Position numbers and translations under genes: made by a program
The notes under the pieces: generated by a model
The model's database searches: none
The model's input: the letters and a program-made list of their open reading frames with translations, nothing else
What the model was told of the DNA's origin: nothing
Shown here: positions 8,401 to 59,788 of the stretch, piece after piece
Numbering within the stretch: position 1 is the first letter of the stretch
How the letters are laid out: each line of letters starts with the position of its first letter
Source: an uncultured Candidatus Saccharibacteria bacterium
GTDB lineage: Bacteria > Patescibacteriota > Minisyncoccia > Phycocordibacterales > PALSA-1337
Reading direction: 5' to 3'
Assembly: GCA_964645315.1 (NCBI GenBank)
Contig: CAZYBH010000004.1
Coordinates: 853 to 64,852 of the forward strand
DNA length: 64,000 bases

Positions 8401-9507
8401 TTATCTATTCATTGGCATAGCCAAGTACATAAAGGTCTGATCACCTGAAATTGGTCTTATAACCATCGGTCGATTTGTACCAGAGAATTGCATAGTCAAA
8501 CTATCAGAATCGATGGACTGGAAACTATCAGCCACATATTTGTAATTAAAATTGATATCTACAGAATCTCCCGATAATGCCCCATCGACAAGGGTGTTAT
8601 TTTCTCCTATGTCGCTATTTTTTGTTTGAATTTTGAATTGTTTTGCTTTTGGATCTATAGAGAAGCTTATTTTATTGAATTTGTCTGAGAAAATGTTTGA
8701 AACTTTCAAACTTGAAACCAAATCTTGCTTCAAAACAACAACTTCTGTAGAAAAGGTCTTGGGAATAATCTGTCTATAATCTGGGAAAACACCGTCGATC
8801 AATCTGGAAACAAGATAAATCTCACCTGAAGAAAAAGATATTAGGTTCTTATTCAAACAGATTTCTACATTTCCATGGATATTTTCTAAAACCCTGAGTA
8901 TATCTGGGATGTTTTTGAATGGAATGAGAATATCCCCAAAGTCTATATTACCTGTTAGTTTTATTTTCTTTTCTGCGAGACGAAATGAATCTGTAGCAAC
9001 GAAAACCAGGTTTTGACTATCTTTGTAGATATAAACACTAGATAATTCTGGTTTAACACTTGAAATAGATGAGCTATACCAAACTGATTTCAAACCTTTC
9101 AAAAAAGCTTCTGCTGGCAAAGAAAGCTTTTTGCCGTCCAAAACACGAGGAATCGATGGAAAATCATCAAATGCTTGGGTTTTGATTGTTCCCTTTGTTT
9201 TTTGGGTGGATATCAAAAGATTTTGCTCTACATCTTCCAATCGAACAATTTGATCATCTCCAGAAATTTGGGAAATGAAAGAAGATAAGATTGAGGCGGG
9301 TACAGCCAACTGACCATTGCCAGTTGATTTGACTGGCAAAACAATCTCCAAACCAACATCCAAATTTGTAGCCTTGATCGTAGCTGTATTATCTTTTACT
9401 TCAAGAAGGATACAAGAAAGCACTGGTAGGGTCATGTGTTTGCCGGCGACCCTATCCACAATCTGCACAGATTCTTTTAGTTTCTTTAGTGTTAGTTCTA
9501 ATTTCAT
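8401..9507 (-). CDS. dnaN: DNA polymerase III beta sliding clamp
   Basis: Typical N-terminus MKLELTLKKLKESVQIV...TLPVLSCILLEV; three-domain length (368 aa); positioned after dnaA. Confidence 0.95.
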   Translation of the reverse strand: MKLELTLKKLKESVQIVDRVAGKHMTLPVLSCILLEVKDNTATIKATNLDVGLEIVLPVKSTGNGQLAVPASILSSFISQISGDDQIVRLEDVEQNLLISTQKTKGTIKTQAFDDFPSIPRVLDGKKLSLPAEAFLKGLKSVWYSSSISSVKPELSSVYIYKDSQNLVFVATDSFRLAEKKIKLTGNIDFGDILIPFKNIPDILRVLENIHGNVEICLNKNLISFSSGEIYLVSRLIDGVFPDYRQIIPKTFSTEVVVLKQDLVSSLKVSNIFSDKFNKISFSIDPKAKQFKIQTKNSDIGENNTLVDGALSGDSVDINFNYKYVADSFQSIDSDSLTMQFSGTNRPMVIRPISGDQTFMYLAMPMNR

Positions 9508-11078: not shown

Positions 11079-11268
11079 AGTATATACTTGTTTATAATTC
11101 TGAAAACTTGTGGAATGGTACAAAATATGTTGATAAGATGTTGATAACAATTTTTTAGTCTATTTTTAAAATAAATTATTAATTTTCCAAATTTCTAATT
11201 GTTTTGAACTGGATTTAATATAATTATTTTAAACTTGAAAAAATTTATAAATACTGTATAGTGTCTCC
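11079..11268. promoter_or_regulatory. Putative oriC / dnaA promoter region with tandem DnaA-box-like repeats and an AT-rich unwinding stretch
   Basis: Two direct TGTTGATAA repeats (one mismatch to TGTGGATAA) at 11128-11136 and 11139-11147. The same 9-mer occurs in inverted orientation at 9706-9714 between dnaA and dnaN. An AT-rich block follows at 11150-11268. Divergent rpmH/dnaA gene organisation. Confidence 0.5.
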
Positions 11269-11403
11269 ATGTCATTTACGTATAATCCAAACAAAAGAAA
11301 AAGAGCAAAGACTCACGGTTTTCGTGTCCGCATGAAAAGTCCTGGAGGCAAGAACGTCTTGGCTCGTCGCAGATCCAAGGGTCGTGCGCGCCTAGCTGTA
11401 TAA
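11269..11403 (+). CDS. rpmH: 50S ribosomal protein L34
   Basis: 44-aa [47 protein letters not shown] matching the L34 consensus. Missing from the ORF track because it is short. Confidence 0.9.
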
Positions 11404-11750: not shown

Positions 11751-12512
11751 ATGTACAATACACTAATATTTACTCCTCTCTATAATATTTTGGTAGAGAT
11801 AATGAATCTAATTCCAGGTATCGGTCTTGGTGTGGCAGTGATTATATTTACTATAGTTATAAAGGTTATTCTCTTCCCTTTGACCAAGAAGGCGCTTATT
11901 ACACAAGTCAAAATGAAGGCTATAGAACCCGAAGTCAATAAGATCAGGCTTCAGTATGCAAATAATAAGCAAGAGCAGGCCATCAAAATAATGGAATTTT
12001 ACAAAGCAAAAAATATTAAGCCTTTATTCGGTGTTTTGCTCATGTTTATTCAGTTGCCAATACTTTTTGCTTTGATTTCGGTTATTTATCATGTTATCCC
12101 TGAGGTCAATCCACAATATTTGTATTCTTTTGTAACCGTTCCTCATATTAGTACAACATTGTTTGGTATAGATATTACAAACAAAAGTTTGATTTTGGCT
12201 TTGCTTGTGGCTGTTTCTCAATATATTCAGCTCAAATACTCTGTTTCGATGCGCCAACAAAAATCCGTTAGTGACAAAATTTTGAAGAATGGTGGCAAAC
12301 TAGATGCACCATCCGAGATAGCAAACAATCTAAACAGTCAGATGAAAATCATGATGCCTATTTTGGCCTTTGTTTCGGTTTATTGGCTTATTCCTATCAA
12401 GTTCCCTGCCGCTTCGTCGGTTATCGCCATATATTGGATAGTAAGTTCACTCTTCACTCTTGCTCAAGAGTTGTATATCAAACGCAAACATCTAGGAGAA
12501 GAGATTGCTTAG
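11751..12512 (+). CDS. yidC: Membrane protein insertase YidC/Oxa1 (short form)
   Basis: Multi-TM 253-aa protein with a YidC-like core (KAL...QVKMKAIEPEVNKIRLQYANNKQEQ...FYK...NIKP); canonical rpmH-rnpA-yidC order. Confidence 0.88.
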   Translation: MYNTLIFTPLYNILVEIMNLIPGIGLGVAVIIFTIVIKVILFPLTKKALITQVKMKAIEPEVNKIRLQYANNKQEQAIKIMEFYKAKNIKPLFGVLLMFIQLPILFALISVIYHVIPEVNPQYLYSFVTVPHISTTLFGIDITNKSLILALLVAVSQYIQLKYSVSMRQQKSVSDKILKNGGKLDAPSEIANNLNSQMKIMMPILAFVSVYWLIPIKFPAASSVIAIYWIVSSLFTLAQELYIKRKHLGEEIA

Positions 12513-13798
12513 ATACCGACAAGATCTAGAGACCAAAGACTTAGATCGTCTTTGTTCATGAAGAATAGATAATCATCTTTGCTATCAGTGCTTAAATTGA
12601 AAGCATTTATTAGGCTATTACTGTTTAGGAGATTTGCTATCAATCGTACATCAGCGGATTTTATATTGTATTGCCAGATTTTGTCATTTGAAGTGACAAT
12701 TCCCTTATACCAATCATCTGGATAGACAGCGTTTGTAGGCAAAGAAGGTGTAGCACAATACAATAGCTCTTTATAGAAATTACCCCAAGTACATTTTTCT
12801 GCCAAGGTGCGCAATGTAGTCTCTATTGGCGTGCTTGAACCAACTTTGTATATATTTGTAAGAATATTTTGTTCCTTACCGGTTGAAGAGGTCAAAACAT
12901 ATTTTGCATCTTTACTGGTCTTTGTTGCTAGACCATTTATCGGACCAAGGATTTTTTTGAATAGGCCGGTTTTTGGATTGACGAAATATAAATATCCAGA
13001 GACATAAGCGCCTGCTTTTGTAGTGATTGAAATAGTATTTTCTTCCGGCCACTCAGATACTACTTGAGTAAGTGGTTGAGTGAAGATTTTTGTTACAGAA
13101 GTACCGTCAAATTTGGATATATAACCGACTCCTTGACCGTTTTCTTTTATTAGCATGAAAATCCTATCTCTCTTGGGAGAAACAGCATAAGCAATCATGT
13201 TTTCTGGCAGATTTTTGCCTCTCAAATTGTAAGGGGTAATGTTTGTCGTTGTGGCTTGAGTCGAACTGGCTTGTTTATTGAGTTTTGCATAGACAACATT
13301 TGGTGTATCAGAATTTGCTGGTATGATCGTGCCGATAAGAGCACCCAAATCTTTGCTCCAAACACTTTCATACATTCTAGGTATAACAGTGTTTGATAGT
13401 GTAGCAATCTCTGTACTATCGCCTTTGGTCTCCAAGACATTGCCCCTACCCCTCTCTATCCAGCGTATAATAGTCGTACTTGCAGTCGTGCTTGCTCCAT
13501 AACCACCGACGGGCTCTTGGCTCAATTGCCTAAGGCTTGGGGCTTTCTCATTTGAGATTGTAGATTGATTGCTTGAGCTTGTGGCCTCGGTTGTCTGGTT
13601 TGTATCGGGAGTTGTGGTGTTTTGTTGATCAACCATCTTGCCTCCAATAGGTACGAAACCTCCACTACTGCCATTGTTTGGATTTTGATTGGTTTGTAGA
13701 GTGCCATTGCCTGGTCCATAGAAGAACATATACCAATATACCCCACCAGCGATGAGTAGAAGTAGTACCGTGAAAATTATTATTTTTGTGGGTTTCAT
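12509..13798 (-). CDS. Bitopic protein: N-terminal TM anchor, Ser/Thr/Asn-rich linker, beta-rich extracytoplasmic domain (last gene of the T4SS-like operon)
   Basis: N-terminal hydrophobic helix IIIFTVLLLLIAGGVYWYMFFY; low-complexity linker; no recognisable catalytic motifs. Confidence 0.5.
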   Translation of the reverse strand: MKPTKIIIFTVLLLLIAGGVYWYMFFYGPGNGTLQTNQNPNNGSSGGFVPIGGKMVDQQNTTTPDTNQTTEATSSSNQSTISNEKAPSLRQLSQEPVGGYGASTTASTTIIRWIERGRGNVLETKGDSTEIATLSNTVIPRMYESVWSKDLGALIGTIIPANSDTPNVVYAKLNKQASSTQATTTNITPYNLRGKNLPENMIAYAVSPKRDRIFMLIKENGQGVGYISKFDGTSVTKIFTQPLTQVVSEWPEENTISITTKAGAYVSGYLYFVNPKTGLFKKILGPINGLATKTSKDAKYVLTSSTGKEQNILTNIYKVGSSTPIETTLRTLAEKCTWGNFYKELLYCATPSLPTNAVYPDDWYKGIVTSNDKIWQYNIKSADVRLIANLLNSNSLINAFNLSTDSKDDYLFFMNKDDLSLWSLDLVGI

Positions 13799-13800
13799 AA

Positions 13801-15030
13801 TTATTTTAGATACTCATTTTGATCTATGTCATTTATCATTGAATCACAATCTGAATCGAAAAGCTTTTTTAATTCAGGATCAGGACTTAATGATTGGCCA
13901 TTAGATTTTATTATTCTGGTCCAGGATTTCAAAAACTTAGTAGCTGCATCTTTGGAAGGAAAAGTTACGATCGTACCATCCGCATTGACCATTTCAACTT
14001 TTCCAGACGGTTTAATTTCTCTTACAGACATATTTGCAAGTTTAATCCTCTGAAGATTCAAGAGGTTTTGTCCGTAGGTGTCCAAGCGGTTAATTGGTTC
14101 AATGTCTACGGCTCCTACTTCTTGCAAATTTTTTATTCTCCTGTTTTTTAATTCAGTCAATGAGTCCTTATTTTTTCCTATTTCTTTCATTGCACGTTGC
14201 ATATCTTCCTGATTATACTTGTCTTCAAATGCTCCATCTATTCTGTTCAATGAGTCTCTTATGAGTCCATTTACATCTATCTTAAATTCGCTAATATTTA
14301 GACTTATAATTTTTTCGCTTACAATTTGAAGCTCACTTGCCCATTGTTTTTCGAGTTCTGATATTAGTTTTGCGTTTTCGGTAGAAGAAGCGGCGCTTTT
14401 GAGCTCGTTAATTTTTTTGGCAGTTTCGTTTGCTTTCGCAATAGCTTCTCGCAGCTCTGTTTTATCAGCACTAACCTCATTACCTATTTCATATCCTCGC
14501 ATCGTGTATTTTGATGTATCAGAAGCAACTGAATTCATAAGTTTTGCATACGCGTCATTTGCAAGTTCTGAATTAAAAGTTATTTCTGGTACCAAAGTAT
14601 TTGGTATTTCGGTAAGTCGAGGATCGACGGTGCGAAGAATTATAAATGAAGTTAGAACTAAGACAAGGCCTATAATGGCATTCTTTGCTCGATCAAGACT
14701 AGATTTTTTGTTTGTAACCGAGGTTGTGATTATGTATTCAAGACCTCCCCAGACCAATTGGACTACAGCGAAAGCGGCAGAAAGAGCGATGAGTAGATTG
14801 AAGGTATATTGAACATAAGTTTTGAAGTCTACTGTTTCCACCAATGAACCATTGCCATCTTTACAAGAGATTCCATTTCCCTCTATACATGGAAGTGGTG
14901 CTAGTACTGTATATTTACCATCAGAAGTGGTTTCGGCACCTCTCGATATGTGTGGCGTTGCTACAAGGCCAAGTCCTATCGATAAGGTTATAGTTAGAGC
15001 AAGGAGATTTTTTTTGAAATTATAAGACAT
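13801..15030 (-). CDS. Signal peptide + VirB2/TrbC-like two-helix pilin module fused to a ~270-aa coiled-coil C-terminal domain
   Basis: Cleavable signal peptide (…PHISRGAE), then two hydrophobic helices (FNLLIALSAAFAVVQLVWGGLEYI / IIGLVLVLTSFIILRTV) separated by a short basic loop (TNKKSSLDRAKNA). This is the topology of VirB2/TrbC pilins. The C-terminus is predicted coiled coil. The call rests on topology only. Confidence 0.4.
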   Translation of the reverse strand: MSYNFKKNLLALTITLSIGLGLVATPHISRGAETTSDGKYTVLAPLPCIEGNGISCKDGNGSLVETVDFKTYVQYTFNLLIALSAAFAVVQLVWGGLEYIITTSVTNKKSSLDRAKNAIIGLVLVLTSFIILRTVDPRLTEIPNTLVPEITFNSELANDAYAKLMNSVASDTSKYTMRGYEIGNEVSADKTELREAIAKANETAKKINELKSAASSTENAKLISELEKQWASELQIVSEKIISLNISEFKIDVNGLIRDSLNRIDGAFEDKYNQEDMQRAMKEIGKNKDSLTELKNRRIKNLQEVGAVDIEPINRLDTYGQNLLNLQRIKLANMSVREIKPSGKVEMVNADGTIVTFPSKDAATKFLKSWTRIIKSNGQSLSPDPELKKLFDSDCDSMINDIDQNEYLK

Positions 15031-15031
15031 A

Positions 15032-16048
15032 TTAATTATTGTTGGTGTCTATAGAATTAAACCTAATGGTAAAGTTTGAGCTGGCTTTTTGGAGTATGTC
15101 TTTTTTGTTTTTGATTGTTAATTCGATATTTGATGCACCGGATGAATTTTCTGGAGCACGGAGAGTAACTGATTGATTTTGAGATAATTCTGGTTTTTCG
15201 TAGTTATTTATCATCCATGTAAGTAGAAGATTGCCCAATCCATTGATTGGTTTATTGAAACCATAAGGTTGCATTATGACACTAACCTCTTTTTCTTTGC
15301 CGATAACGATATTTTCTGGCAAGATTTTGTTGTAAAGTGGTCCATATAGCGGATCATCGATATAAAAATTGAGACTAGGTGAGGCATAGCTTATGTTTAT
15401 GTATCCGGAGACTTTTTTCTGACCATCTCTTGTAAAAGCCGTGACTGTAATGGTCGTATCTCTGGGCACGATTTCACCCACTAGATTGAAACTTTGTTTG
15501 CCATAGCCACTTTGATCTTCGACACTTCGACTATTTCTCTTCCATTCATAAACAAGATTTTTTGGATCGTATTCTACACCTTTGGAATCAGCCAAATGAG
15601 GAATAGCAATAATATTTAGAGAATTTTGATAGGACACTGGTAATTTGCCCAAAAAGAGCGGTGGTGTATGGCCATCATTTTCTACAATCAAGTCTATAGA
15701 ACCAGAGCCGACTGACAATTTTCCTGAAACGCTAATGCCGTTTGATGAAAGGGCTTGGACTGTGACCAATGTCTCTTTGCCAAGAGCTGGGGCGGTGATC
15801 TCGTAGGAAGTTAGACCTGTACCCTTTTGGACTACCTTGTCATTTACTGACCAGGTCACATTTGCAGAATCTATATCTATGCTATAGCTACGCGCTCGGA
15901 TTGAGACTTTTTGACCTGGAGCGGGACTATCTATAGATGCGGTAAGCTCTAGACTATTTGCACTTACAGGTACACCTTGAGCATGAGCAAAGTCAAACTG
16001 AAATATAGAAAATGTTAGAGAAAATAATAAGAACAGAATTCTATTCAT
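15032..16048 (-). CDS. Secreted beta-rich protein (signal peptide), T4SS-like operon member
   Basis: Signal peptide MNRILFLLFSLTFSIFQFDFAHAQG; no TM beyond it; no identifiable domain. Confidence 0.55.
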   Translation of the reverse strand: MNRILFLLFSLTFSIFQFDFAHAQGVPVSANSLELTASIDSPAPGQKVSIRARSYSIDIDSANVTWSVNDKVVQKGTGLTSYEITAPALGKETLVTVQALSSNGISVSGKLSVGSGSIDLIVENDGHTPPLFLGKLPVSYQNSLNIIAIPHLADSKGVEYDPKNLVYEWKRNSRSVEDQSGYGKQSFNLVGEIVPRDTTITVTAFTRDGQKKVSGYINISYASPSLNFYIDDPLYGPLYNKILPENIVIGKEKEVSVIMQPYGFNKPINGLGNLLLTWMINNYEKPELSQNQSVTLRAPENSSGASNIELTIKNKKDILQKASSNFTIRFNSIDTNNN

Positions 16049-16081
16049 GGCTATATTTTAGCACAACAATTACAAAAACTA

Positions 16082-16519
16082 TTAGTCCAATCTTGGTGGA
16101 CGCACACCATTTTCATTGACCGGACTGGAACTATTGTAATTTGCATTTGAAGGCAATCTTACACCATCTTGGTATGCTGGCTTTCTTGGGTTGGAATATA
16201 TCTCTTCTTCGGCTTGTCGTTGTTTAAATTGAGCGTTGTCTTTTCGTGAAGCTTGATGAATGTAGAAAATATCTACTATCCAGGCCGGTGCAATTCCAAC
16301 AGAAAAAAACTCAGCTGCAGCAGTAAAACCAAGAAGTGAAATCAGTCTTGTGGGATGTTTTGTTAGATCTAAACCCCGCAATTTAAAATAACCAAAGAAT
16401 CCAATACCTATAAAAACATCAGCTAATAGATCAGCACCAGGAAAAAATATCTGAACAATATCGATTATAATAGCTACTATATAAACAAATATCCACTCGA
16501 TTATTCCTATTTTTGACAT
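16082..16519 (-). CDS. Small polytopic membrane protein (about 3 TM) with a Pro/Asn-rich tail, T4SS-like operon member
   Basis: Hydrophobic segments IIEWIFVYIVAIIIDIVQIFF, VFIGIGFFGYF, LISLLGFTAAAEFFSVGIAPAWIV. Confidence 0.55.
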   Translation of the reverse strand: MSKIGIIEWIFVYIVAIIIDIVQIFFPGADLLADVFIGIGFFGYFKLRGLDLTKHPTRLISLLGFTAAAEFFSVGIAPAWIVDIFYIHQASRKDNAQFKQRQAEEEIYSNPRKPAYQDGVRLPSNANYNSSSPVNENGVRPPRLD

Positions 16520-16520
16520 A

Positions 16521-18332
16521 TTATTGACCGGATTGCTCCAATTGCTTCTTTGCTTCCTTGATCTGCATAACTTGGGCTGGATTTGTGGTAATGATCTGAT
16601 CCTCGGTGTACGAACCTACGATTTTGATGGCGACATGCTTGAGTCCTACGAAGAATATACCCTCTCCCACGTCAGATTCTAGTAATAGATATTTCTCTTC
16701 ATCAGTAAGATTGAAGGTTTTTTGGATATGATCAATAACGGTTGGAGATTGCTTGAGTAGGATTTGCATTGAAGAGTTGGTAAGAATTGGCAAACCGTAA
16801 GGAGATTTGAGGAAGTCGTCCACGTCTTGGGTAATAGTTGCAAGACCAAGGAAATATTTGCGACCTCTCTTCGCTAGACCGAAAAGGAATGAGGCAGTAT
16901 CTTCTGATTTCATCATCCACCACGCCTCATCAATAACAAGAAGTCTTTTCTTGAGATTTTTGCGGATTGCATTCCAAATATAGTGAGTAACGATGTACAT
17001 AGCTACTGGTTTCAATTCGTCTTCCATGTCTCTTAGTGAAAAGACCACGAAGCGCTTATTGATATCGACATTTGTGGGACGATTGATGAAACTTGACCAG
17101 GTACCCTTTGTATATTTTGTAAGTCTTTGGACCAAAGATTCGGTGCCTTCCATTCCTGTCAAAACTAATTCGAAATCGGAAAGAAGCGGTGGCTCTATAT
17201 TGGCAAAATTGGATTCTGGAGTTATGTCTTTCAAAGCGTAGGTTTCGGTTATTGCCCTATCGATAATAGCGTCTTCTTCTTGAGTAAGCCCACCAAGCAT
17301 GATGCGGAATAGTCCAACTAGGTTTATTATATTTGAACGCAGAACATCACTAGCGGATTCATCTTCTCTTGGTATTGGTAGATCAAAAGGATTGATATGG
17401 TGTTCGGAATTGAGAGAAATGTTGAAATATTTGCCACCAGTAGCTGTGGACATATACTCATATTCTTTTTCGGGATCGATAACTATAACATCTGTATCAA
17501 ACATCAATGTTCTCAATATTTCTAGCTTGGTACAGTAGGATTTACCAGAACCAGCAACGGCAAAAGTAACTGAATTGTAATTTTCTAGGCTAAATCGATC
17601 AAATAAGACCAAAGAAGAATTGTGTCTATTTATGCCATAAAGTATGCCTTTGTCTGAAGTCAGGTCAAAAGAAACAAATGGAAATAGTGAAGAAAGTGGT
17701 GATGAATTGAGCTTTGAATTGACTTGAAGCATATCGTCACCTATCGGTATTACACTCTTGAAACCCTCTTCTTGTTGGAATAGGGCTGGTTTTACATAGA
17801 CAAGTTTGGATTCTAGTATTGATTTTATTTCTGATTCCAATTTGTCTAGCTCATTTTCATTGTCGGCAAAGATTGTAATATAAACACCAACATCAAAAAG
17901 GTGCTCTTGAGCTTGCATCAATTGATCGCGAAGATTTTCGAGATCTTGATAGGCTGTATCGAGCGATGGTTCGCGGACTAGACCCTTCTCTTCTCTTCTT
18001 GCTATCTGGCTTTGGACTTCAGCTACTTTCTTTTTGAAATGATGGAGAATCTTGGCTGTATCGACTGGATGAATGAAAATTGAAACATTAAAAACCTTGT
18101 CGAGATTGATTATTGGAGCAAACCAACCTTCATCGACAAATCTTGGATATGAAATGACGAAAAGTGTTCTGCCGATCTTTTCGCCTAAGTTGATATCTTT
18201 TGGGCTAATTTTGAGGGCGGAAGGAGCGATAATGTCTCTCAATTCCAAAACTCCAGCTTGATATATCTCTTCAGGCAAAACTGAGACTATTGGATCCTCT
18301 TTTTTACCAAATAATTTTGAAAAAAATGCCAT
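16521..18332 (-). CDS. virB4: VirB4/TrbE/CagE-family type IV secretion ATPase, ATPase (C-terminal) portion
   Basis: Walker A FAVAGSGKSYCTK; hallmark VirB4 Walker B LLVIDEAWWMM (DEAW); motif GLATITQDVDDF. Its start lies 1 nt after the stop of the upstream N-domain ORF. Confidence 0.8.
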   Translation of the reverse strand: MAFFSKLFGKKEDPIVSVLPEEIYQAGVLELRDIIAPSALKISPKDINLGEKIGRTLFVISYPRFVDEGWFAPIINLDKVFNVSIFIHPVDTAKILHHFKKKVAEVQSQIARREEKGLVREPSLDTAYQDLENLRDQLMQAQEHLFDVGVYITIFADNENELDKLESEIKSILESKLVYVKPALFQQEEGFKSVIPIGDDMLQVNSKLNSSPLSSLFPFVSFDLTSDKGILYGINRHNSSLVLFDRFSLENYNSVTFAVAGSGKSYCTKLEILRTLMFDTDVIVIDPEKEYEYMSTATGGKYFNISLNSEHHINPFDLPIPREDESASDVLRSNIINLVGLFRIMLGGLTQEEDAIIDRAITETYALKDITPESNFANIEPPLLSDFELVLTGMEGTESLVQRLTKYTKGTWSSFINRPTNVDINKRFVVFSLRDMEDELKPVAMYIVTHYIWNAIRKNLKKRLLVIDEAWWMMKSEDTASFLFGLAKRGRKYFLGLATITQDVDDFLKSPYGLPILTNSSMQILLKQSPTVIDHIQKTFNLTDEEKYLLLESDVGEGIFFVGLKHVAIKIVGSYTEDQIITTNPAQVMQIKEAKKQLEQSGQ

Positions 18333-18333
18333 A

Positions 18334-18975
18334 TTATCTAATTTGAATTGGCTTTTCGGTCTCGCCAGGATTGAAAAGCTTATAATATAATTCTACCACT
18401 TCTTCGGTACCTAGCTCGGCTGTTCTTATCCCACATCTTACAAGTCCTTGCTCTACGACAGCTATTCTCTGCTCAAGCTGGCTTCTATTTTCTTTGAATT
18501 GCATTTCGGCCGTCTCTTTTTGATCTTTGCCATGCGATCTACCAGGGAGAATCCTGGTAAGAGGATTGTTCGATATGCTTTGAGGGATCGGATCATAAGG
18601 CACTACGACAAAGAAACTTTTTGACATAATGTTTGTATTTTCTACAAAAGCCTTTACGAATTCTATATACTCGCGGACTTGAATTTTCATCAATTCGCTA
18701 ACCTGCTCTTTGTATCGATCTTCCAATAAAGCAATATATGGCCTTATATCGAGCTTTTTTGATTGGATTACAATTTGAACTGAGAAATCCAATGAGTTTA
18801 GGAAATTTTGGAATTGGAGAAGTATCGAAGCTTGCTCATCTTGAGACTTAAGAGCGAAGTTTAGAGATGAGGCCAATACAATAGATCTCATGCCTCCGTT
18901 TTTGAGGATAATAACCCCATCGCGAATCTCTTGAATGGGAACAAATTCTTGAGTTGTTTTTGAAGCTGTAGCCAT
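18334..18975 (-). CDS. VirB4 N-terminal domain encoded as a separate ORF (split VirB4)
   Basis: The pattern QEIRDGVIILKNGGMRSIVLASSLNFALKSQDEQ... matches the conserved start of VirB4/TraC N-domains (I-x-DG-x-I-x-x-x-G-x-x-x-x-x-I-x-L-x-G-x-x-F-x-L). 213 + 603 aa equals a typical full-length VirB4. Confidence 0.6.
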   Translation of the reverse strand: MATASKTTQEFVPIQEIRDGVIILKNGGMRSIVLASSLNFALKSQDEQASILLQFQNFLNSLDFSVQIVIQSKKLDIRPYIALLEDRYKEQVSELMKIQVREYIEFVKAFVENTNIMSKSFFVVVPYDPIPQSISNNPLTRILPGRSHGKDQKETAEMQFKENRSQLEQRIAVVEQGLVRCGIRTAELGTEEVVELYYKLFNPGETEKPIQIR

Positions 18976-19433
18976 TATTTTTGATTTTGATTAGAGTACA
19001 TACTCTCTTTGATATCCAATGACCATGTGAGATCTTTGAGTTTGCTGTCGGAGATTTTTGGTACCATAACTGAAGCGTAATTTTGATTTTCTTGAGCTTT
19101 ATCTTGCTTTTTGATGGGTTTATCGGACTTTTTCCAGATATATAGTTTGCTATTTGTATAATAATGAAAAGCTGATTCTAGTACACTGACGAAAGGTTTG
19201 TTGTTTATCTTGAGAAATGCCAAAGCGCTAGATGCTCCCATGATTATTGCTGCTGGGAATAATGAAAGGATGAAGTTGTCCAATATGACATATATGATAA
19301 ACGACAACCCTGCCCCACCGACGAGATAAATAAACTGCTTTAGGGTTAATTGCCCAAAGATCTTATCTTCCACTTCAATAAATTGAGGAACTTGGAATCG
19401 CATCGAATATATTATAACCCAAGCACAAAACAA
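18975..19433 (-). CDS. VirB3-like small membrane protein
   Basis: Immediately precedes the VirB4 N-domain ORF with a TAATG stop/start overlap. Contains a FGQLTLKQFIYLVGGAGLSFIIYVIL segment followed by a second hydrophobic helix, as in VirB3/TrbD/PrgI-type proteins. Confidence 0.5.
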   Translation of the reverse strand: MFCAWVIIYSMRFQVPQFIEVEDKIFGQLTLKQFIYLVGGAGLSFIIYVILDNFILSLFPAAIIMGASSALAFLKINNKPFVSVLESAFHYYTNSKLYIWKKSDKPIKKQDKAQENQNYASVMVPKISDSKLKDLTWSLDIKESMYSNQNQK

Positions 19434-19441
19434 AGTCTTGT

Positions 19442-21199
19442 TTATTCTATTGGTTCGCGATACGGATCGCCTTTATTGGATGTGCTTGGTCTTGAAATTG
19501 GACTAGGAATTGGCTTCGATTGATCAGTGAAGACCTTGTCACTGATGAAATGTGGCTTTGCCGGCTCCTCCACTTTGTCTTCAAGCATTTTTTCGGCCTG
19601 TTTGAAGTTATTTGGATCACTGATATCTATCGAAGGACTATTTTGGGCGATTTGCGATCTGATATCATTCCTCAATTCTTCTTGACTAGGTTCTGGCTTT
19701 TTTTCTTCCACTTTTGGTTCTTCGGTTTTCTTGATATTTTGCTTATCAAGTAAATTGATCGATTCTGCTGGAGGATTGCTTTCTATTGCTTTTATTGTTT
19801 CTTCGGCGACCTTTATATTGGCATCTTTTTTTGGCTCTTCGGCTGGAATCTGGCTAATTAATTTATTTAGCTCTACATCAATTGGCTTGGGGTTTGGCGT
19901 TTGTACTGGTATTGATGTTTGTATTGGTGTTTCTGTCGGAGTAGGTATGGTATCTGGAGTAGAAACTGGTGCTTGCACAGGTTCTGGCATATGTCTGACT
20001 TCTGCTGTGTCTGGTCTTACAACTTCTACGGATTCTTCTGTTGGCAAATTTGCTGGTATAGCAACCTCCTCTTTTTGCGGTTTAAACTCGTTTGTTCCTC
20101 CTTCTACAGTATTTTTGACCGTTTCTTCTTCAGTCTGATGTTCTTTTATTGCATCGTATAAATCAAAACTTGGTTTTGCATTTTCATCATCTTCTATATC
20201 AGAGTATTCGCCACTTTTGTTATCACTTTCATTATTATCGACTTCACCTTCTTCTTCCTCTTCCTTATCTGACTTCGTTTCCGTGTATTCATTTTTTCCC
20301 TCATCCTCTTCAATATCTGACTTCACTTCCCCATCTTCAATTTTTTCTTGATCCGCTTCTACTGTTTCCTCGTTTTTCTTTTCTCTTTTGTCCTCTGCTA
20401 TCTTTGCACTTTCATCGGTGTTTTCTGATTTTGATTCTGTTTCTGTATTTTGCTCTTCCCTGCTTTCTTCATTTGCACTAGAAAAATTGTAGTAAGTATG
20501 AGGATCAAAGTTTGATGCAACTTCATTTTCTGTGCTTACTATCTTTTCCTCCGTAATAGGTTTAATTTCTTCAGCTTTTATTTTTTGTTCAGGAATTTTC
20601 GCTTCCTCTATTTTTGTAATTGGTACATCTACTTTTGGTTTTGGAGCAATGCTATAAGCTTCTGAAGCTTTTTGTTCTTCCATAGCTCTTTGTTTTGCCA
20701 AGTATTCCCTTCTCTCTTGCATCATTTCTAATTCTGTCGGTACTGTAGTTTCAATTTTGAAATCACCAGCGCTTTCGAGGTCGGCGTGAGGAGACTCCTC
20801 CGCATCTTCTTTATCAATTCTGCCAAATTGACCAGAATTGGTCTTATAAGTTTCATTTACAATTTTTGGCGATGGAGCAGTATGGTTTTCGGATGATCTC
20901 ATAGACTCTCTTATTGAAGAGAATACTTTATCGCTAATCTCGGCAGTAATAATTCGGGCTTGTTTTTCGCCAATATTTAGTTCTCGAGCTAATGTTTGAG
21001 TGAATTGATTTTGTGGTATCAAGCCGAGCATTACATAGCTAGTAACATCAAATAAAATATCCATTTGGTCCAAAAGCAAGCCAAATTTACTGGATATTTC
21101 TTTTATATTTTCTGCGACTTGCGGAGAAGTCATGGCGAATTTGACTTCATCTGGAAGTGAAAGAAATTTATCTTCTATTGTTGAATAATCGAATTCCAT
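19442..21199 (-). CDS. Large acidic, low-complexity protein with a ~100-aa structured N-terminal domain (T4SS-like operon member)
   Basis: 585 aa; the N-terminal region looks globular; the remainder is E/K/D/T/P-rich and predicted disordered. The opposite-strand ORFs at 19520-20481 are compositional shadows. Confidence 0.6.
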   Translation of the reverse strand: MEFDYSTIEDKFLSLPDEVKFAMTSPQVAENIKEISSKFGLLLDQMDILFDVTSYVMLGLIPQNQFTQTLARELNIGEKQARIITAEISDKVFSSIRESMRSSENHTAPSPKIVNETYKTNSGQFGRIDKEDAEESPHADLESAGDFKIETTVPTELEMMQERREYLAKQRAMEEQKASEAYSIAPKPKVDVPITKIEEAKIPEQKIKAEEIKPITEEKIVSTENEVASNFDPHTYYNFSSANEESREEQNTETESKSENTDESAKIAEDKREKKNEETVEADQEKIEDGEVKSDIEEDEGKNEYTETKSDKEEEEEGEVDNNESDNKSGEYSDIEDDENAKPSFDLYDAIKEHQTEEETVKNTVEGGTNEFKPQKEEVAIPANLPTEESVEVVRPDTAEVRHMPEPVQAPVSTPDTIPTPTETPIQTSIPVQTPNPKPIDVELNKLISQIPAEEPKKDANIKVAEETIKAIESNPPAESINLLDKQNIKKTEEPKVEEKKPEPSQEELRNDIRSQIAQNSPSIDISDPNNFKQAEKMLEDKVEEPAKPHFISDKVFTDQSKPIPSPISRPSTSNKGDPYREPIE

Positions 21200-23151
21200 T
21201 ATCTAATTAATTTTGCATTATCAATCATATCTTGTAGATCATCTGTTCCCATTTGTGTAATATCGGTCGATCCTGCTGGTCCCCTTGTTGCCGCAGCAAT
21301 TTTTGCCTGCAAATCGCCCTCCTCGCGTAAGTTTAATGGACTAGCTGCTCCAAACCTAGCTTTCTCTCTTCTAATGTCAACTTGAACAGTCTCAAGTTTC
21401 TTCTTAAGATCGCCAATTGCCTCCTTCTTTTTATCGAGCTGCTTTTGCCAGACATCGATATTGATTTTTGCTGCAGCTGCTTTATTTTTTCTAGCTATTT
21501 TTGTAAATAAAGTTTCCGGATTAGCCATTCTACCCGCAATTCTTTTGGCGTAATCTGCCTGTCTTTCTTTTTGCTTGTTTGTTACGGCAGTTCCTAGCTG
21601 TCTCTTGAGATTTTCAACGTTTGCTTTATGCATATCGGCCATAGCTGTTCGTCCGGCTGCCCTCTCAATCTTCTCCATTGCAGACTCATCACGAATTAAT
21701 TCACCAGCTTCTCTTTTCATTTTTTGTACAGCTCCCTCATCAAAACCAAGAGAATTAGCAAAGTCTGTTCGCTCTTTTACCTGTTTATCAAGTTTTTCAT
21801 TGTAACTTTTTGCAGCACCGCGCAAATTATTTAGGGCAAATTGGCCTAAAGCATTTTTGGCTGCAAAATTTTTGACACCTTCAAGATTTGCCAACTTGCT
21901 AGCGGCTCTTCCTCCTGTATTTTGCCAAGCAGTGGCACCGGTACTATTCCAAGTTCTATTTCCAATAGTTTTCCAAATAGACAAAGCATCAAACTTACCT
22001 TTGTACTTGCTAATTATTTGTGTAGACCAGCCACCCATACTCAAAGCAACGAAAAGCGGTAGGTTTAGGACGACAATAACTATAGCGAAATTTACACCGA
22101 TTATAATAAATGGAAGAAGCCAGTTTGTACCTGTCATAGATGCATCATTCAGTGTATTACCGGTATCGAAAAATTCACTACCATTCAGAATAGAAAGCCC
22201 GACATACATAAGTAGTAGATATGTAGGCAAAAATATCAATTGTGCTTTGAGTTGAGTGGTAAAAAATGAAAAATGCTTCTTTACATCTGGTAATACCATG
22301 CCCGCCCAGTGCATAGATGAAAAGGCTAAGAGGAAAATTAGAACAACGGTTCTTGCCATCACTGCTATGGAGGCTAGAAGGAAGCTAATTCCAGTGGTAA
22401 ACATCATGACTACTCCAGCTAGACTAATGAGAGCAATTTTGACTGGATTTCCAAGGTTTGTACCAAGTTTATTGCCATTTGAATCGTATATTTTTTGAAT
22501 TCTAAGACTATTCATAAATATATTGGAAATATTGGCTTTTGAGTCACTTGCGACAATAGATGTTAGATTATTATCTTTATCAATTTTCACAACATTGTGT
22601 GTTGGTAGTATTGCATTGTATATTGCCTGAGAGACAATATTTGAAGCATCGATACCTACACTTGTAATGAAGAAGCTAAAATTAACAAGTACACCGGCAA
22701 TTACTATGTTTTTTATGGTTTTGCCATAATTACCCTCTCCCCAACCAGTGATCATCTGTATGGCTGCATAAAGCAAGTAGAAGATAAAGGCCATACCTGT
22801 AATGTCTCTCAATATTCTCCAAGTAGAAAATACGGCTGGGGTGGCATTGACAAAGTCTTTTATATTGAGAGTTAATCTCATGGCAACATCGAAGATATAG
22901 GCGCAAAAACCGAGGAATGTGGCGGTCGTAGACATTGCGAAAACTCCAATCATTGCCACTAGAGAATTGAACATATCTTGCAAACTCTCCGAACCAAATA
23001 TTTTTGCAAGCACGCTATTTCCTTGATTGTTAACATTTGACTGTACAGCTGAGCCAGTAGGTTTGTCTTGAGCAAATACAGGTGAAGCAATAGCAAAAAC
23101 ACTTGTTATTATCAGACTAAATATTAAGATTTTTGCTAATGTTTTTTTCAT
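21199..23151 (-). CDS. VirB6/TrbL-like polytopic membrane protein with signal peptide and a long charged coiled-coil C-terminal tail
   Basis: Signal peptide (…SPVFAQD); at least 6 predicted TM helices across residues ~60-380; about 270-aa K/E/R/A-rich C-terminal region. Co-operonic with VirB3/VirB4. Confidence 0.55.
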   Translation of the reverse strand: MKKTLAKILIFSLIITSVFAIASPVFAQDKPTGSAVQSNVNNQGNSVLAKIFGSESLQDMFNSLVAMIGVFAMSTTATFLGFCAYIFDVAMRLTLNIKDFVNATPAVFSTWRILRDITGMAFIFYLLYAAIQMITGWGEGNYGKTIKNIVIAGVLVNFSFFITSVGIDASNIVSQAIYNAILPTHNVVKIDKDNNLTSIVASDSKANISNIFMNSLRIQKIYDSNGNKLGTNLGNPVKIALISLAGVVMMFTTGISFLLASIAVMARTVVLIFLLAFSSMHWAGMVLPDVKKHFSFFTTQLKAQLIFLPTYLLLMYVGLSILNGSEFFDTGNTLNDASMTGTNWLLPFIIIGVNFAIVIVVLNLPLFVALSMGGWSTQIISKYKGKFDALSIWKTIGNRTWNSTGATAWQNTGGRAASKLANLEGVKNFAAKNALGQFALNNLRGAAKSYNEKLDKQVKERTDFANSLGFDEGAVQKMKREAGELIRDESAMEKIERAAGRTAMADMHKANVENLKRQLGTAVTNKQKERQADYAKRIAGRMANPETLFTKIARKNKAAAAKINIDVWQKQLDKKKEAIGDLKKKLETVQVDIRREKARFGAASPLNLREEGDLQAKIAAATRGPAGSTDITQMGTDDLQDMIDNAKLIR

Positions 23152-23152
23152 T

Positions 23153-24742
23153 TTATTGAACGTAACCTATACACATATAATTGTATTGACTCAATCTACC
23201 ATCGAGTTCCCTTGCTTTTGCTCTTGCTTCTGCAAGTTCGGTATCTGCCGAATCTATCTTAGATATCACACTAGCACCTCCGTTTGTAAGATAATCTGTA
23301 TACTTTACTGTTTGAGGTTGAATTTGATTTGAAGGATCATTTTCTACAGCATTGAGCATATCTTGAAGAGTTTTCTTTTCTTTCATACCGTCGTCATATT
23401 TCTTTTGATATTTTTGAATTAGAGGATCAATTTCATTGAATACAGTATTATCTATATCAGTAAGACCACCATTGAATCCTGTGCTATTTTGTCGTTCTGC
23501 AAGGCAAGATCTTACCGAGGTATATTTATTTCTTATAGCTGTCAATTCTGCTACAGCTACTTTATATTGATCTGTATACTTCGGAACTTGGGCTATAGAA
23601 GTGCTTATCGAATCCTTAAGCGATCCGGCTGTGTTCTTTAGAGCTTCTTGAGAGCTAATTTCTTTTGCCATAATTGATGAAGCAGAATTACTACCTCCAG
23701 AACTAAAGTTTTTCAAACCGCCACCCAAAACTTCCATTGTTAGTCTTGATACTAGTGCGGAGATGATTGCGTTTATATCATTTGCAAGCTCGAGTTCTAC
23801 AGTTGGAACATTGAGGCTTGTGTGTAGCTGATTTGCAATGACCGAACCTGGAGTCTGTGTTTCGCAAGTCTGGACTGTCTCAGTACCATTTTTATTTTTC
23901 TTGACTCTAGTACCAGCATCATTGCCTACAATGCCGTTAACTTCTTGTACTTGACCTGCATCTTCAGGATCATAAGTACCACCGGGCACATCCTTACAGC
24001 TTTGCCATGACATGAATCCTTGACCAAGCTGGAGATCGGCTCTTATAACATTTTGTCTTGAATTTATCCTTGCATCCAAATCAGCTTGAGCAGAAAGGAA
24101 TGCTCCATAAGGATTGTTTTGTGGTTCGGTAGTGAGAGCGAGGAATGCTGGCCAGCCACCTTGATTGAAATCACCTTTTAGGAATCCATTGTATGAGCTA
24201 TTGCTTGATCGTACTACTTTGCCATTTACTATTATGTCCGGACCATTCTTCTGGGCTTCTATTATTTTGCCAACCGTACATGTATATCTTTCGGTTGTCA
24301 GATTTGTCTTGCTTAGAGCAAGTGAAAGTCTAATATCTATTGCAAAAGGTGAACAGAGTGCTGATAGTGGTCCATTTGTAGCTAAGAATGCTCCGGTCAC
24401 TTGATCTGCGGCATCTAGGAAAAATGCTCCAGGATTGGACAAAAATGCTGGACTTCCCTCAAAGCCGTGATTTATCCAGTTGATGACATCTAGAGTAATT
24501 TTGTGTAATAGTTGTTTTGCTGCCAAAACCGCTGCTTTGTTTAGGACGAAATCTTTTAGATGGGTCCAAGTCAAGTTTAGGTAATTGGAAATACCTGTTG
24601 GGCTAGTATCTGCATTGACTATTACGCTATCTGCAACTCCGGCAACAGCATGAACTCTTCCAATATTTACAAATATGCTAGAAATAAAAATTGACAATAC
24701 AAGCAGTTTTAATATTAATTTTTTTGTTGAGGAAAAATTCAT
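23153..24742 (-). CDS. Secreted 529-aa protein (signal peptide), T4SS-like operon member
   Basis: Signal peptide MNFSSTKKLILKLLVLSIFISSIFVNIGRVHA; no TM afterwards; no recognisable catalytic motif. Confidence 0.55.
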   Translation of the reverse strand: MNFSSTKKLILKLLVLSIFISSIFVNIGRVHAVAGVADSVIVNADTSPTGISNYLNLTWTHLKDFVLNKAAVLAAKQLLHKITLDVINWINHGFEGSPAFLSNPGAFFLDAADQVTGAFLATNGPLSALCSPFAIDIRLSLALSKTNLTTERYTCTVGKIIEAQKNGPDIIVNGKVVRSSNSSYNGFLKGDFNQGGWPAFLALTTEPQNNPYGAFLSAQADLDARINSRQNVIRADLQLGQGFMSWQSCKDVPGGTYDPEDAGQVQEVNGIVGNDAGTRVKKNKNGTETVQTCETQTPGSVIANQLHTSLNVPTVELELANDINAIISALVSRLTMEVLGGGLKNFSSGGSNSASSIMAKEISSQEALKNTAGSLKDSISTSIAQVPKYTDQYKVAVAELTAIRNKYTSVRSCLAERQNSTGFNGGLTDIDNTVFNEIDPLIQKYQKKYDDGMKEKKTLQDMLNAVENDPSNQIQPQTVKYTDYLTNGGASVISKIDSADTELAEARAKARELDGRLSQYNYMCIGYVQ

Positions 24743-25695
24743 TATTTTTTATTTGTAATGAAAACCAAGCCATACTGATCAAATATAGTCTTCATATCAT
24801 CGACGGCCGAGCTGACTTTTTGGATTGAATCTAATTCGTGTCTGATGCCATTTAGAGCAGGAAGAGGATCTTTCTCTATATTTCTGATTACTTTTGCATT
24901 ATATATCTGCATCGAGACACCGTTTATAAGATTAAGATGTGGCAGTGCGAGCGTCTCTGGTACAGTGAGTGATTTGAGGCTATTGAGAGTTTTTTGGTAG
25001 CCAGAGATTATAGGATCGATATCCTTCAACAATTCCATATTGTCGGTTTCAAGAGCGCTCGTGACTATCTCTGCTTCATTTTTGTCAGGCATCCATTTGC
25101 TCAAAATACTCATGAGAGTTTCGGCGTAGTTTTTTATTGATTGAGCATCATTTGCATTTGGATTTATTTTTATGTCTTTGAGATCATAAACTTTTGCCCC
25201 GTCCATTTTGTCCAAACTTTCATTGATCAGTTGATTGGTTACTGATTCTACGGCACTGGCATTGTTGTTTAGGCCGGATTGTCTAAGTTCTGCGTATTTT
25301 GTAAAGAAATTTCTACTGAAAACTTCTGTGGCGGTTAGTTTTTGGTTTTGATTGGATTTGCTTATGTCGGTGGCTTTTTTTGTATCGACTTTTTGTTGTT
25401 TTTGATCGAAGAATTCTTTTTGCCAAGGCTCTTCCTTGAAACTTGTATCTTCTTTGACATTTATGATTGGTTTTACAGATTCGTTTTTGAATGAAACCTG
25501 TTTTGAGGAAGAAGGAAGGCCGTTTATCGCTATGTATGTACCAATAACAAAGAAGCCTGAAACAATAAATGTAATAAAAGTTTGGCTGCGTGGGTAGTAT
25601 TTAGCCATGCTATAAAGAATTATAGCAAAGAACCAAGCAAAATCGTATTTTTCTGTGGACAGTTTTATTGAATTTCTTTTGCAATCAAAAACCAA
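24742..25695 (-). CDS. Bitopic membrane protein (N-terminal TM helices + ~250-aa extracytoplasmic domain), first gene of the T4SS-like operon
   Basis: N-terminal hydrophobic helices FAWFFAIILYSMA / FITFIVSGFFVIGTYIAI. It overlaps the ksgA 3' end by 31 nt if the first ATG is used; a later start (M30) is possible. VirB8-like topology only. Confidence 0.45.
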   Translation of the reverse strand: MVFDCKRNSIKLSTEKYDFAWFFAIILYSMAKYYPRSQTFITFIVSGFFVIGTYIAINGLPSSSKQVSFKNESVKPIINVKEDTSFKEEPWQKEFFDQKQQKVDTKKATDISKSNQNQKLTATEVFSRNFFTKYAELRQSGLNNNASAVESVTNQLINESLDKMDGAKVYDLKDIKINPNANDAQSIKNYAETLMSILSKWMPDKNEAEIVTSALETDNMELLKDIDPIISGYQKTLNSLKSLTVPETLALPHLNLINGVSMQIYNAKVIRNIEKDPLPALNGIRHELDSIQKVSSAVDDMKTIFDQYGLVFITNKK

Positions 25696-26456
25696 GTCTC
25701 AACTGCTATTTCCTCTGCCCTAATTTTGGGATTAAGATTCAATTTTTGCCATATCGAGGCCAGCTTTTCTTTATTGGAAATGAAATTTTCGAGATTTTTT
25801 ATGGCAAATTTCCTCTTGTGAGCAAAAGCGGACTTGATCATTTGGAAAAAGGAGGAAATTTGGATATTTGATCTCTTGAATTGTTCGTCATTTATATCTT
25901 CTATTGATAAAATTGCAGAATCGACTGTTGGTGCTGGACTAAAAGCATTTCTCGATACTTTTGAGATGATCTTTGGTCGACCAAACGCTTTGACTGATAT
26001 AGATAGTATACTTTCTTTATTATCTTTTGTAATAATCCTATCGGCCACCTCTTTTTGGACTAGAAGAACCATTTTTGTAGGCCTTTTTTGACCTTCAAGA
26101 AACTTTTCTAGTATAGCTCCAGTAATATAATAAGGGATATTGGCTATAACCTTGAACGCAGAATCAGGAATATGGCTATCTGAAATCAAAATATCATCCT
26201 CAATAAGCTTTAATTGGTCATTATTTATATAATTGCTGAATTTTTGATCAAGTAAAGCTATTGCCCTACTGTCTTTTTCGATGGCTATGACTTTTGCTCC
26301 AGCATCGAGTAATCCTTGAGTCAAAATGCCCGTTCCGGGGCCAATTTCCAAGATAATTTCGTCTTTTTGAATGTTTCCAGCGGAAATAATCTCATCAAGA
26401 GCTTTTTTTGATGTTAGGAAATGTTGCCCCAGAGTTTTTTTTGCTTGCAAATTCAT
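25665..26456 (-). CDS. rsmA: 16S rRNA (adenine1518/1519-N6)-dimethyltransferase RsmA/KsgA
   Basis: N-terminus KKTLGQHFLTSKKALDEI; SAM-binding motif LEIGPGTGILT; length 263 aa. Confidence 0.9.
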   Translation of the reverse strand: MNLQAKKTLGQHFLTSKKALDEIISAGNIQKDEIILEIGPGTGILTQGLLDAGAKVIAIEKDSRAIALLDQKFSNYINNDQLKLIEDDILISDSHIPDSAFKVIANIPYYITGAILEKFLEGQKRPTKMVLLVQKEVADRIITKDNKESILSISVKAFGRPKIISKVSRNAFSPAPTVDSAILSIEDINDEQFKRSNIQISSFFQMIKSAFAHKRKFAIKNLENFISNKEKLASIWQKLNLNPKIRAEEIAVETWFLIAKEIQ

Positions 26457-58525: not shown

Positions 58526-58569
58526 TTTTTAATTTTTAAATTTTGATTTTTCATTTTTAAATTTGAAAC

Positions 58570-59787: not shown

Positions 59788-59788
59788 A

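Follow-up and report, generated by a model that had tools for sequence, protein, structure and literature searches.

The 64,000-nucleotide stretch of DNA analyzed here (hereafter the window; contig CAZYBH010000004.1 of assembly GCA_964645315.1, positions 853 to 64,852, from an uncultured Candidatus Saccharibacteria bacterium) carries eleven co-directional, tightly packed open reading frames (ORFs) on its minus strand at 12509-25695. We conclude, with a probability of roughly 0.78, that this cluster, whose genes are numbered ORF1 to ORF11 from its upstream end, encodes a chromosomal, vertically inherited type IV secretion system (T4SS) of the Patescibacteria clade, related to the MPF_FATA systems and of the Paceibacteria/Parcubacteria type, which likely serves interaction with a host cell. 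An initial annotation made from the letters alone had proposed an eleven-gene operon of this general kind, and all of its ORF coordinates agree with the ORF listing of the window.

Core components of the secretion system

All ORFs of at least 120 aa in the window were scanned against Pfam, and unknowns were also searched against NCBIfam. The motor of the system is ORF7 (16521..18332; 603 aa), a VirB4 ATPase made up of a middle domain and a motor domain at the C-terminus. It matched the NCBIfam profile conju_CD1110 over positions 179-732 of 752 (2.8e-112; 376 bits, curated cutoff 325) and, in Pfam, the TraG P-loop family (5.5e-26) as well as AAA_10 and DUF87. Together with its Walker A (AVAGSGKS, containing GSGKS), Walker B (VIDEAWW, containing DEAW), and TQD motifs, these matches bear out the VirB4 call of the initial annotation. 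Against PDB, the best-scoring chain was that of Thermoanaerobacter VirB4 (4AG5, 3e-38), and because TrwK was matched at only 2e-4 as compared to this monoderm VirB4, the protein is distant from VirB4s of the MPF_T type. Its closest plasmid relatives, at ≤35% identity, are all CD1110-family conjugation ATPases of Bacillota or Actinomycetota. Judged by its best family, PDB, and plasmid matches rather than by a tree, ORF7 thus appears nearest to the VirB4s of monoderm MPF_FATA systems.

The N-terminal domain of VirB4 is detached and lies immediately upstream as ORF6 (18334..18975), which matched the NCBIfam families VirB4_plasma (the VirB4 of Mycoplasma integrative conjugative elements [ICEs]; positions 100-233, 1.9e-13) and TrsD (NF041427, 4.3e-6). 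It also matched conju_CD1110 at positions 2-111, and BLASTP aligned it with the VirB4 of Clostridium botulinum plasmid pCDC3875, an unsplit protein of 797 aa, over residues 20-196 of the latter (8e-11). Because ORF6 covers the N-terminus of the VirB4 profile (~110 positions) that is absent from ORF7, VirB4 is genuinely encoded as two polypeptides, a TrsD-like N-terminal domain and the ATPase; the VirB4 N-domain mentioned in the initial annotation is therefore accounted for by ORF6. A search for relatives using one genome per species returned at least 591 relatives of VirB4, of which the 80 best served for locus comparisons, and in 79 of these 80 loci ORF6 is likewise a separate ORF (~213 aa) adjoining virB4, with a median identity of 65%. 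Two places upstream of VirB4, ORF5 (18975..19403) encodes a small membrane protein with two adjacent transmembrane (TM) segments that belongs to the Pfam PrgI family (PF12666; 2e-9, 38.3 bits, cutoff 27), and its VirB3-like designation is upheld. Its median identity is 57% in 79 loci.

Three genes downstream of virB4, ORF10 (13801..15030; 409 aa) is the sole pilin-like ORF in the window. It matched the Pfam family T4SS_pilin (PF18895; 2.1e-7, 31.4 bits, cutoff 26.6) at residues 77-133 and, weakly, a pilin-like NCBIfam family of Mycoplasma ICEs, so that the VirB2-type topology read from the sequence is now joined by a family match. A signal peptide and a two-TM hairpin (residues ~32-135) are followed by a helical C-terminal extension of ~270 aa, which is indeed fused to the pilin as had been noted. 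Such extensions are common in related loci: at least 100 aa follow the second TM segment in 61 of 69 pilin-like ORFs (median 212). Because the loop between the TM segments is rich in Lys and Arg, the extension is predicted to be, and should be, extracellular.

The fourth candidate component is ORF3 (21199..23151; 650 aa), a polytopic protein with a signal peptide, ~7 TM segments, and a helical C-terminal extension of ~270 aa rich in Lys, Arg, and Glu, which would be cytoplasmic. The initial annotation had described it as VirB6/TrbL-like, and part of the evidence agrees: 7 of 54 ORF3 orthologues matched Pfam TrbL (PF04610, best 6e-5), the topology fits, and ORF3 lies upstream of the PrgI and VirB4 genes, which is the place of VirB6 in a Clostridium plasmid module. 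However, ORF3 itself had no Pfam match, single-sequence hhalign comparisons with a CD1112-type VirB6 and with R751 TrbL gave probabilities of <1%, tblastn of ORF3 against plasmids found nothing, and its profile retrieved no VirB6 from PDB, only coiled-coil noise from the C-terminal extension. An invariant NFS...D..N motif is found in the TM core of the family. Precomputed matches of ORF3 homologues to PF19590, presumably a TrbL-like family, were not reproducible against current Pfam and were not used. We therefore refer to ORF3 as a candidate "extended" channel subunit; a class of extended VirB6 proteins has been recognized before (PMC12857230).

Operon layout and accessory proteins

Eight junctions between genes of the cluster consist of stop and start codons that overlap by 1 nt or lie 1-2 nt apart, and two are wider, ORF5 being preceded by a gap of 8 nt and ORF9 by one of 33 nt (16082 / 16048). 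The touching or overlapping junctions that had been taken to mark translational coupling are thus real at eight positions but do not extend across the gap between the 145-aa and the 338-aa ORF. Two starts were revised on the basis of orthologues. The longest frame of ORF1 (24742-25695, 317 aa) begins with a TTG at 25695 and overlaps ksgA. Because orthologues are 284-307 aa long, the true start is probably the internal ATG at 25608 (24742..25608, ~288 aa), with which the apparent overlap disappears. Similarly, the longest-frame call for ORF5 is 18975-19433, and since orthologues measure 141-146 aa, the start most likely lies at 19403 (142 aa). A scan for promoters and terminators gave counts no different from those in shuffled sequence, so no boundaries of a transcription unit are claimed. 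The cluster is more than a chance arrangement, because all eleven positions keep their order and orientation in related genomes.

The remaining six genes encode the part of the cluster that had been called non-canonical, and no family was found for ORF1, ORF2, the N-terminal domain of ORF4, or ORF8. The signal peptides, bitopic topologies, and acidic 585-aa protein reported for this set are all evident in the translations. In ORF1, one TM segment near the N-terminus (residues 39-57 when counted from the TTG start) precedes an extracytoplasmic domain of ~230 aa. Orthologues occur in 38-40 related loci, always immediately after ksgA, at ~29% identity. Searches of Pfam, NCBIfam, and PDB profiles with ORF1 returned no match, and in particular no VirB8, PrgL, or TcpC chain was found in PDB. 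ORF2 (23153..24742; 529 aa) is secreted by way of a cleavable signal peptide and combines a conserved, Cys-containing N-terminal domain with a C-terminal bundle of long helices. At least 299 proteins annotated as hypothetical make up its family, in which certain Trp, Pro, and Cys positions are invariant. The structural model of ORF2 is confident only for the C-terminal bundle and of low quality over the conserved N-terminal domain, and fold searches were uninformative. Matches of ORF2 homologues to DUF4141 (PF13605) were discarded, as they were seen in 5 of 80 (best 8e-6), fell on the signal peptide (15-50), and were below the gathering score.

Two accessory proteins presumably lie on the cytoplasmic side of the membrane or within it. 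ORF4 (19442..21199; 585 aa) is a soluble and presumably cytoplasmic protein, with 23% Asp and Glu and no TM segment, in which a conserved N-terminal domain of ~100 aa is followed by an acidic low-complexity tail of ~480 aa. Only the first 15-25% of ORF4 can be aligned with relatives. A soluble acidic ORF between ORF3 and PrgI is present in 56 of 60 loci, usually at ~180-260 aa, and the tail (19442-20870, minus strand) is expanded in the window as compared to these relatives; it is the cause of a strong local dip in GC and AT skew at 20-22 kb. Profile searches of PDB and Pfam with the N-terminal domain gave nothing significant, and a hint to DUF1825 was weak. ORF8 (16082..16519; 145 aa) is a small membrane protein with several TM segments and has no family in Pfam or NCBIfam. 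Homologues were recognized by sequence in only 14-15 loci; in 49 of 70 loci, a small multi-TM ORF follows VirB4 and precedes ORF9, and thus the slot is conserved and its sequence is variable.

The last two accessory proteins are extracytoplasmic and could be described at the level of folds. ORF9 (15032..16048; 338 aa), present in 76 of 80 loci, has a signal peptide ending in FAHA/QG and consists of three homologous segments of ~100 aa each, which hhalign aligned with one another at probabilities of 89-96%. The ORF9 profile gave no significant match in PDB or Pfam; weak PDB profile matches to the immunoglobulin (Ig)-like protein Hoc (0.004) and to an antigen receptor suggest that the repeats are probably Ig-like beta-sandwiches. 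ORF11 (12509..13798; 429 aa) is bitopic: a TM helix at the N-terminus is followed by a disordered linker rich in Gln, Asn, Ser, and Thr (~30-85) and by a domain at residues 89-425 that was modeled by AlphaFold2 as a beta-propeller (predicted local distance difference test 83, predicted template-modeling score 0.75). Foldseek aligned this model with WD40, TolB, and tricorn propellers in PDB (E 1e-9 to 4e-10), and the PDB profile search gave a weak hint to TolB (0.036). The extracytoplasmic domain of ORF11 is therefore predicted to be a beta-propeller rather than an NTF2-like domain. ORF11 has 391 homologues, all annotated as hypothetical, and is found in 60 loci, always as the last gene of the operon and convergent with yidC. 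In an exact-sequence look-up, no record was found for the VirB4, and ORF11 was on record in the Logan assembly of SRR11567528.

Because the pilin carries a large, fast-evolving domain that is predicted to be extracellular, and because the accessory proteins include adhesin-like folds (Ig-like repeats and a beta-propeller), one could suppose that VirB4 does nothing more than assemble the extended pilin into an attachment fiber, with no substrate being translocated. The lack of a substrate-recruiting type IV coupling protein (T4CP) encoded in cis would agree with this. We regard a machine for adhesion only as improbable, however, since the operon retains a candidate VirB6-like channel and a conserved cytoplasmic acidic protein, and, for adhesion, the genome already has genes for type IV pili. 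Moreover, T4SSs that secrete without a T4CP are known, such as Bordetella Ptl and Brucella VirB (PMC12102498).

Genomic context and conservation

The cluster is embedded among housekeeping genes. On the ORF11 side lie yidC (11751-12512), which is encoded on the strand opposite to the operon, rpmH (~11269-11403), dnaA (9726-~11078), and dnaN (8401-9507). On the ORF1 side are ksgA (25665-26456) and uvrD/pcrA (26532-28466). The order UvrD, KsgA, ORF1, ORF2, ORF3, (ORF4), ORF5, ORF6, ORF7, (ORF8), ORF9, ORF10, ORF11, YidC (opposite strand), DnaA, DnaN is nearly invariant in the best-80 loci. Because this whole gene order recurs in ~80 species-level metagenome-assembled genomes (MAGs) of the Paceibacteria type, the cluster belongs to a vertically inherited chromosome and not to a mobile element. 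GC content is uniform over the window.

The best 80 VirB4 relatives share 76-93% identity with ORF7 and are all encoded by Patescibacteria MAGs, most of which are labeled Paceibacterota, Parcubacteria, or Taylor-, Zambryski-, Campbell-, Wolfe-, or Nomurabacteria, and some of which carry the generic label "Saccharibacteria". Many of the closest MAGs are titled "uncultured Candidatus Saccharibacteria bacterium", and equally close ones are assigned to Paceibacterota, Parcubacteria, or Taylorbacteria; the former titles look like generic or incorrect labels.

Conservation was compared over the 13 loci covering every gene. Median identities were 86% for VirB4 (a value slightly inflated, as loci were ranked by VirB4 similarity), 72% for the TrsD-like protein, 64% for DnaA, 63% for PrgI, 62% for UvrD, 58% for DnaN, 51% for KsgA, and 45% for YidC. 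VirB4 and the TrsD-like protein were more conserved than DnaA, DnaN, UvrD, KsgA, and YidC in 13 of 13 loci. That VirB4 surpasses DnaA, UvrD, and DnaN indicates strong purifying selection. The extracytoplasmic proteins of the operon are only ~30% identical across loci. Taken together, these values agree with a core system that is inherited vertically and tightly constrained and whose surface parts evolve fast, and not with a mobile element.

These observations bear directly on the possibility that the cluster is the remnant or active part of a conjugative element (an ICE or plasmid) that encodes its relaxase and coupling protein just beyond the window. In its favor, the nearest VirB4s outside Patescibacteria are the CD1110-family ATPases on Bacillota and Actinomycetota plasmids, the order of the core genes resembles that of pCDC3875, and a tyrosine recombinase is encoded at 37326-38249. 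However, the recombinase is XerC/D-like and lies 11 kb away with housekeeping genes between, and the dnaN-dnaA-rpmH-yidC and ksgA-uvrD flanks recur with the same gene order in dozens of species-level genomes. Furthermore, the higher conservation of VirB4 than of DnaA is the opposite of what would be expected of a decaying mobile element, and GC content shows no local departure. We thus reject this explanation, which we consider highly improbable, on the grounds of the housekeeping flanks and the stable synteny; the complete classical conjugative element that would have contradicted the initial annotation is not what surrounds the operon.

Proposed function

No VirD4/TcpA coupling protein, relaxase, VirB11, or VirB8/9/10 was found among the window ORFs of at least 120 aa by Pfam and NCBIfam searches, in agreement with the initial annotation. 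Its suggestion of a minimised or repurposed T4SS in an episymbiont-style organism, rather than a classical conjugation module, matches the published Patescibacteria T4SSs (PMC10633639, PMC12102498, PMC12857230). Because the homologous locus of Southlakia epibionticum is essential for epibiotic growth and has neither relaxase nor T4CP, the machine described here most likely serves, by analogy, host-cell interaction (transfer of protein or other macromolecules, or contact) and not plasmid conjugation. In the mechanism that we propose, ORF3 would form a VirB6-like membrane channel on which VirB4, the TrsD-like protein, and PrgI dock, and the VirB4 motor would power extraction of the pilin from the membrane and possibly the passage of substrate. 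The pilin would then polymerize to give a short filament or conduit that crosses the cell wall, with the fast-evolving extension exposed on the outside, and ORF1, ORF2, ORF9, and ORF11 may form an extracytoplasmic, wall-spanning scaffold or the parts that contact the host.

Several points weigh against this reading. Both the function and the essentiality are extrapolated from a different class, Saccharimonadia. The assignment of ORF3 as VirB6/TrbL-like is weak, and polymerization of a pilin bearing an extension of ~270 aa is an assumption. Four conserved extracytoplasmic proteins are without functional assignment, and the model of one of them (ORF2) is poor. No VirB8-like protein or cell-wall hydrolase was recognized within the operon by Pfam, NCBIfam, or the ORF1 PDB profile. 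Finally, VirD4 homologues lie far from virB4 in many Patescibacteria (PMC12102498), and a T4CP may thus be encoded elsewhere in the genome.

With regard to the hydrolase, a gene with LysM and M23 peptidase domains (28704-29804, plus strand; Pfam Peptidase_M23 2.1e-28, LysM 6e-21) is divergent from uvrD and lies 3 kb upstream of the operon, where it is present in 9 related loci only. VirB1-like proteins with M23 and LysM domains are associated with virB4 in Paceibacteria (PMC12102498), and the peptidase is a possible VirB1-like partner in wall remodeling; it stands outside the operon, and its membership in the system is uncertain.

The absence of a relaxase and T4CP from the 64-kb window would also be compatible with a competence-type T4SS, such as Helicobacter ComB or archaeal Ced, by which DNA from the host or the environment would be imported as a source of nucleotides or genes. 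The neighborhood includes uvrD/pcrA and, beyond the LysM-M23 peptidase and before PNPase, a ComM-like gene of the Mg-chelatase family. The motor domain of ORF7 gave a weak partial NCBIfam match to CedB (5e-9), and T4SS loci of the class ABY1 co-localize with comF, recG, and radA (PMC12102498). However, the CedB match is far below the cutoff and spans only the generic P-loop region, and ksgA, uvrD, and dnaA are housekeeping neighbors rather than a competence regulon. Competence of Saccharibacteria has been attributed to type IV pili, the genes for which are separate in the window. Moreover, deletion of comEC in S. epibionticum ended competence and not viability (PMC12857230), and thus the essential role of the T4SS there is not ComEC-dependent DNA uptake. 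DNA import, the main rival, is accordingly an unlikely role, and interaction with a host cell remains the reading that we favor.

A more specific picture can be entertained for this Paceibacteria-type lineage, if only tentatively. The single VirB2-like pilin, with its rapidly diverging outer domain of 200-300 aa, could together with the propeller, the three-Ig-repeat protein, and the ORF2 family form a decorated filament or an organelle of contact, used in feeding or in recognizing a host, that is without counterpart among characterized T4SS pili. Were this true, the stronger constraint on the motor (VirB4 and its detached N-domain) than on DnaA would mark the machine as a core organelle of the lineage, perhaps an essential one.

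Other features of the window

Four DnaA-box-like 9-mers, including a perfect TTATCCACA at 43226-43234, are clustered within 120 bp at 43126-43246, in the intergenic region that separates a UPF0102 gene from tRNA-Gly (43028-43099). The cumulative GC skew stays level at 10-42 kb and climbs from ~42 kb onward, and nearly every gene at 12.5-36 kb is encoded on the minus strand. Because of this box cluster, the GC skew, and the strand bias of the genes, the replication origin could be at 43126-43246 instead of beside dnaA. Two tandem TTATCAACA boxes are also present at 11128-11147, in the short intergenic region between dnaA and rpmH, and dnaA probably starts at 11078 (450-aa product) and not at the longest-frame TTG at 11150.

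Type IV pilus genes are found at 565-2238 and 56777-63676. Among them are genes for two T2SSE ATPases that resemble PilB and for a T2SSF protein that resembles PilC; a further protein, of 593 aa, combines a CarboxypepD_reg domain with a methylation motif at its N-terminus. Two ORFs without a family follow these genes. A 588-aa ORF on the minus strand (31744-33510), between the ComM-like gene and PNPase, had no Pfam match and no significant NCBIfam match. A membrane H+-translocating pyrophosphatase is encoded at 52799-54784 on the minus strand (Pfam H_PPase, 3.6e-276) in this organism with a small genome.

Comparison with known systems

Patescibacteria T4SSs have been much discussed; they are essential in the sole genetically tractable species and encode pilins despite the monoderm cells of these organisms. 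In enrichments of Patescibacteria with methanogens, the highly expressed genes include those for T4SS pilins, and a 2025 FEMS review lists the Patescibacteria systems as a new T4SS group (PMC12857230). The T4SS of that species, Southlakia epibionticum ML1 (SEML1_0006-0019), was shown by transposon sequencing to be essential for epibiotic growth; its composition is nearest to Gram-positive conjugative T4SSs, its pilins are essential, and it has no recognizable coupling protein or relaxase (Wang et al. 2023, Cell, PMC10633639). Like the cluster in the window, it is an ori-proximal chromosomal locus with the core order VirB6-x-PrgI-x-VirB4 (where ORF3 is the candidate VirB6 of the window), PF18895 pilins, and neither relaxase nor T4CP in the cluster, and its downstream exported Ig-like (PEGA) protein has a probable parallel in the window. 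In contrast, S. epibionticum has six short pilins on the opposite strand, whereas the window has one long pilin inside the operon, and its cluster includes triple lysozyme-like and NTF2-like (VirB8-like) proteins, neither of which was recognized in the operon of the window. S. epibionticum also belongs to a different class (Saccharimonadia), and essentiality has been shown only there.

Among conjugative systems, that of C. botulinum pCDC3875 (MPF_FATA, CD1110/CD1112/CD1115 type) encodes a VirB4 of the same family (~33% identity) and a PrgI-family protein in the order (VirB6)-PrgI-x-VirB4, and like the window it lacks the outer-membrane core proteins VirB7, VirB9, and VirB10. It differs in having a VirD4-like T4CP, an SLT transglycosylase, and a MOBP relaxase, none of which is in the window. 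Its VirB4 is unsplit and no pilin is present, as compared to the split VirB4 and the pilin of the window, and ORF3 has no detectable similarity to a CD1112 VirB6. Bordetella Ptl, Brucella VirB, and Helicobacter ComB likewise function although neither a dedicated coupling protein nor a relaxase is encoded alongside them (PMC12102498); however, these are diderm MPF_T systems with VirB7/VirB9/VirB10 cores, from which the VirB4 of the window is distant.

The closest correspondence is with the survey of Quinonero-Coronel et al. (2025, Microb Genom, PMC12102498), in which VirB4 was found in 2,417 of 3,035 Patescibacteria genomes as a clade nested in MPF_FATA, with genes for TrsD, PrgI/VirB3, VirB6, and VirB2-like proteins nearby and no relaxase. 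In Paceibacteria, the T4SS locus was close to dnaA, dnaN, ksgA, rnpA, and rpmH. The window has the same MPF_FATA-related VirB4, adjacent TrsD-like gene, PrgI, pilin, and candidate VirB6, with no relaxase or T4CP nearby in 64 kb, in the same dnaA, dnaN, ksgA, and rpmH region. This kind of system is thus already described in work from 2023-2025; the window fits the published descriptions at every point tested, and nothing in it differs in kind. The known kind of system is therefore unchanged, and what our analysis adds is a complete Paceibacteria-type example, with a fixed 11-gene blueprint common to dozens of species that should be useful for choosing structural and genetic targets. Also resolved here are the very high conservation of the motor proteins VirB4 and TrsD relative to the replication initiator DnaA and the first descriptions, at the level of folds, of some uncharacterized accessory genes, namely those for the extended pilin, the secreted protein with three repeats, and the anchored propeller; the main text of that survey mentions neither "extension" nor "coiled".

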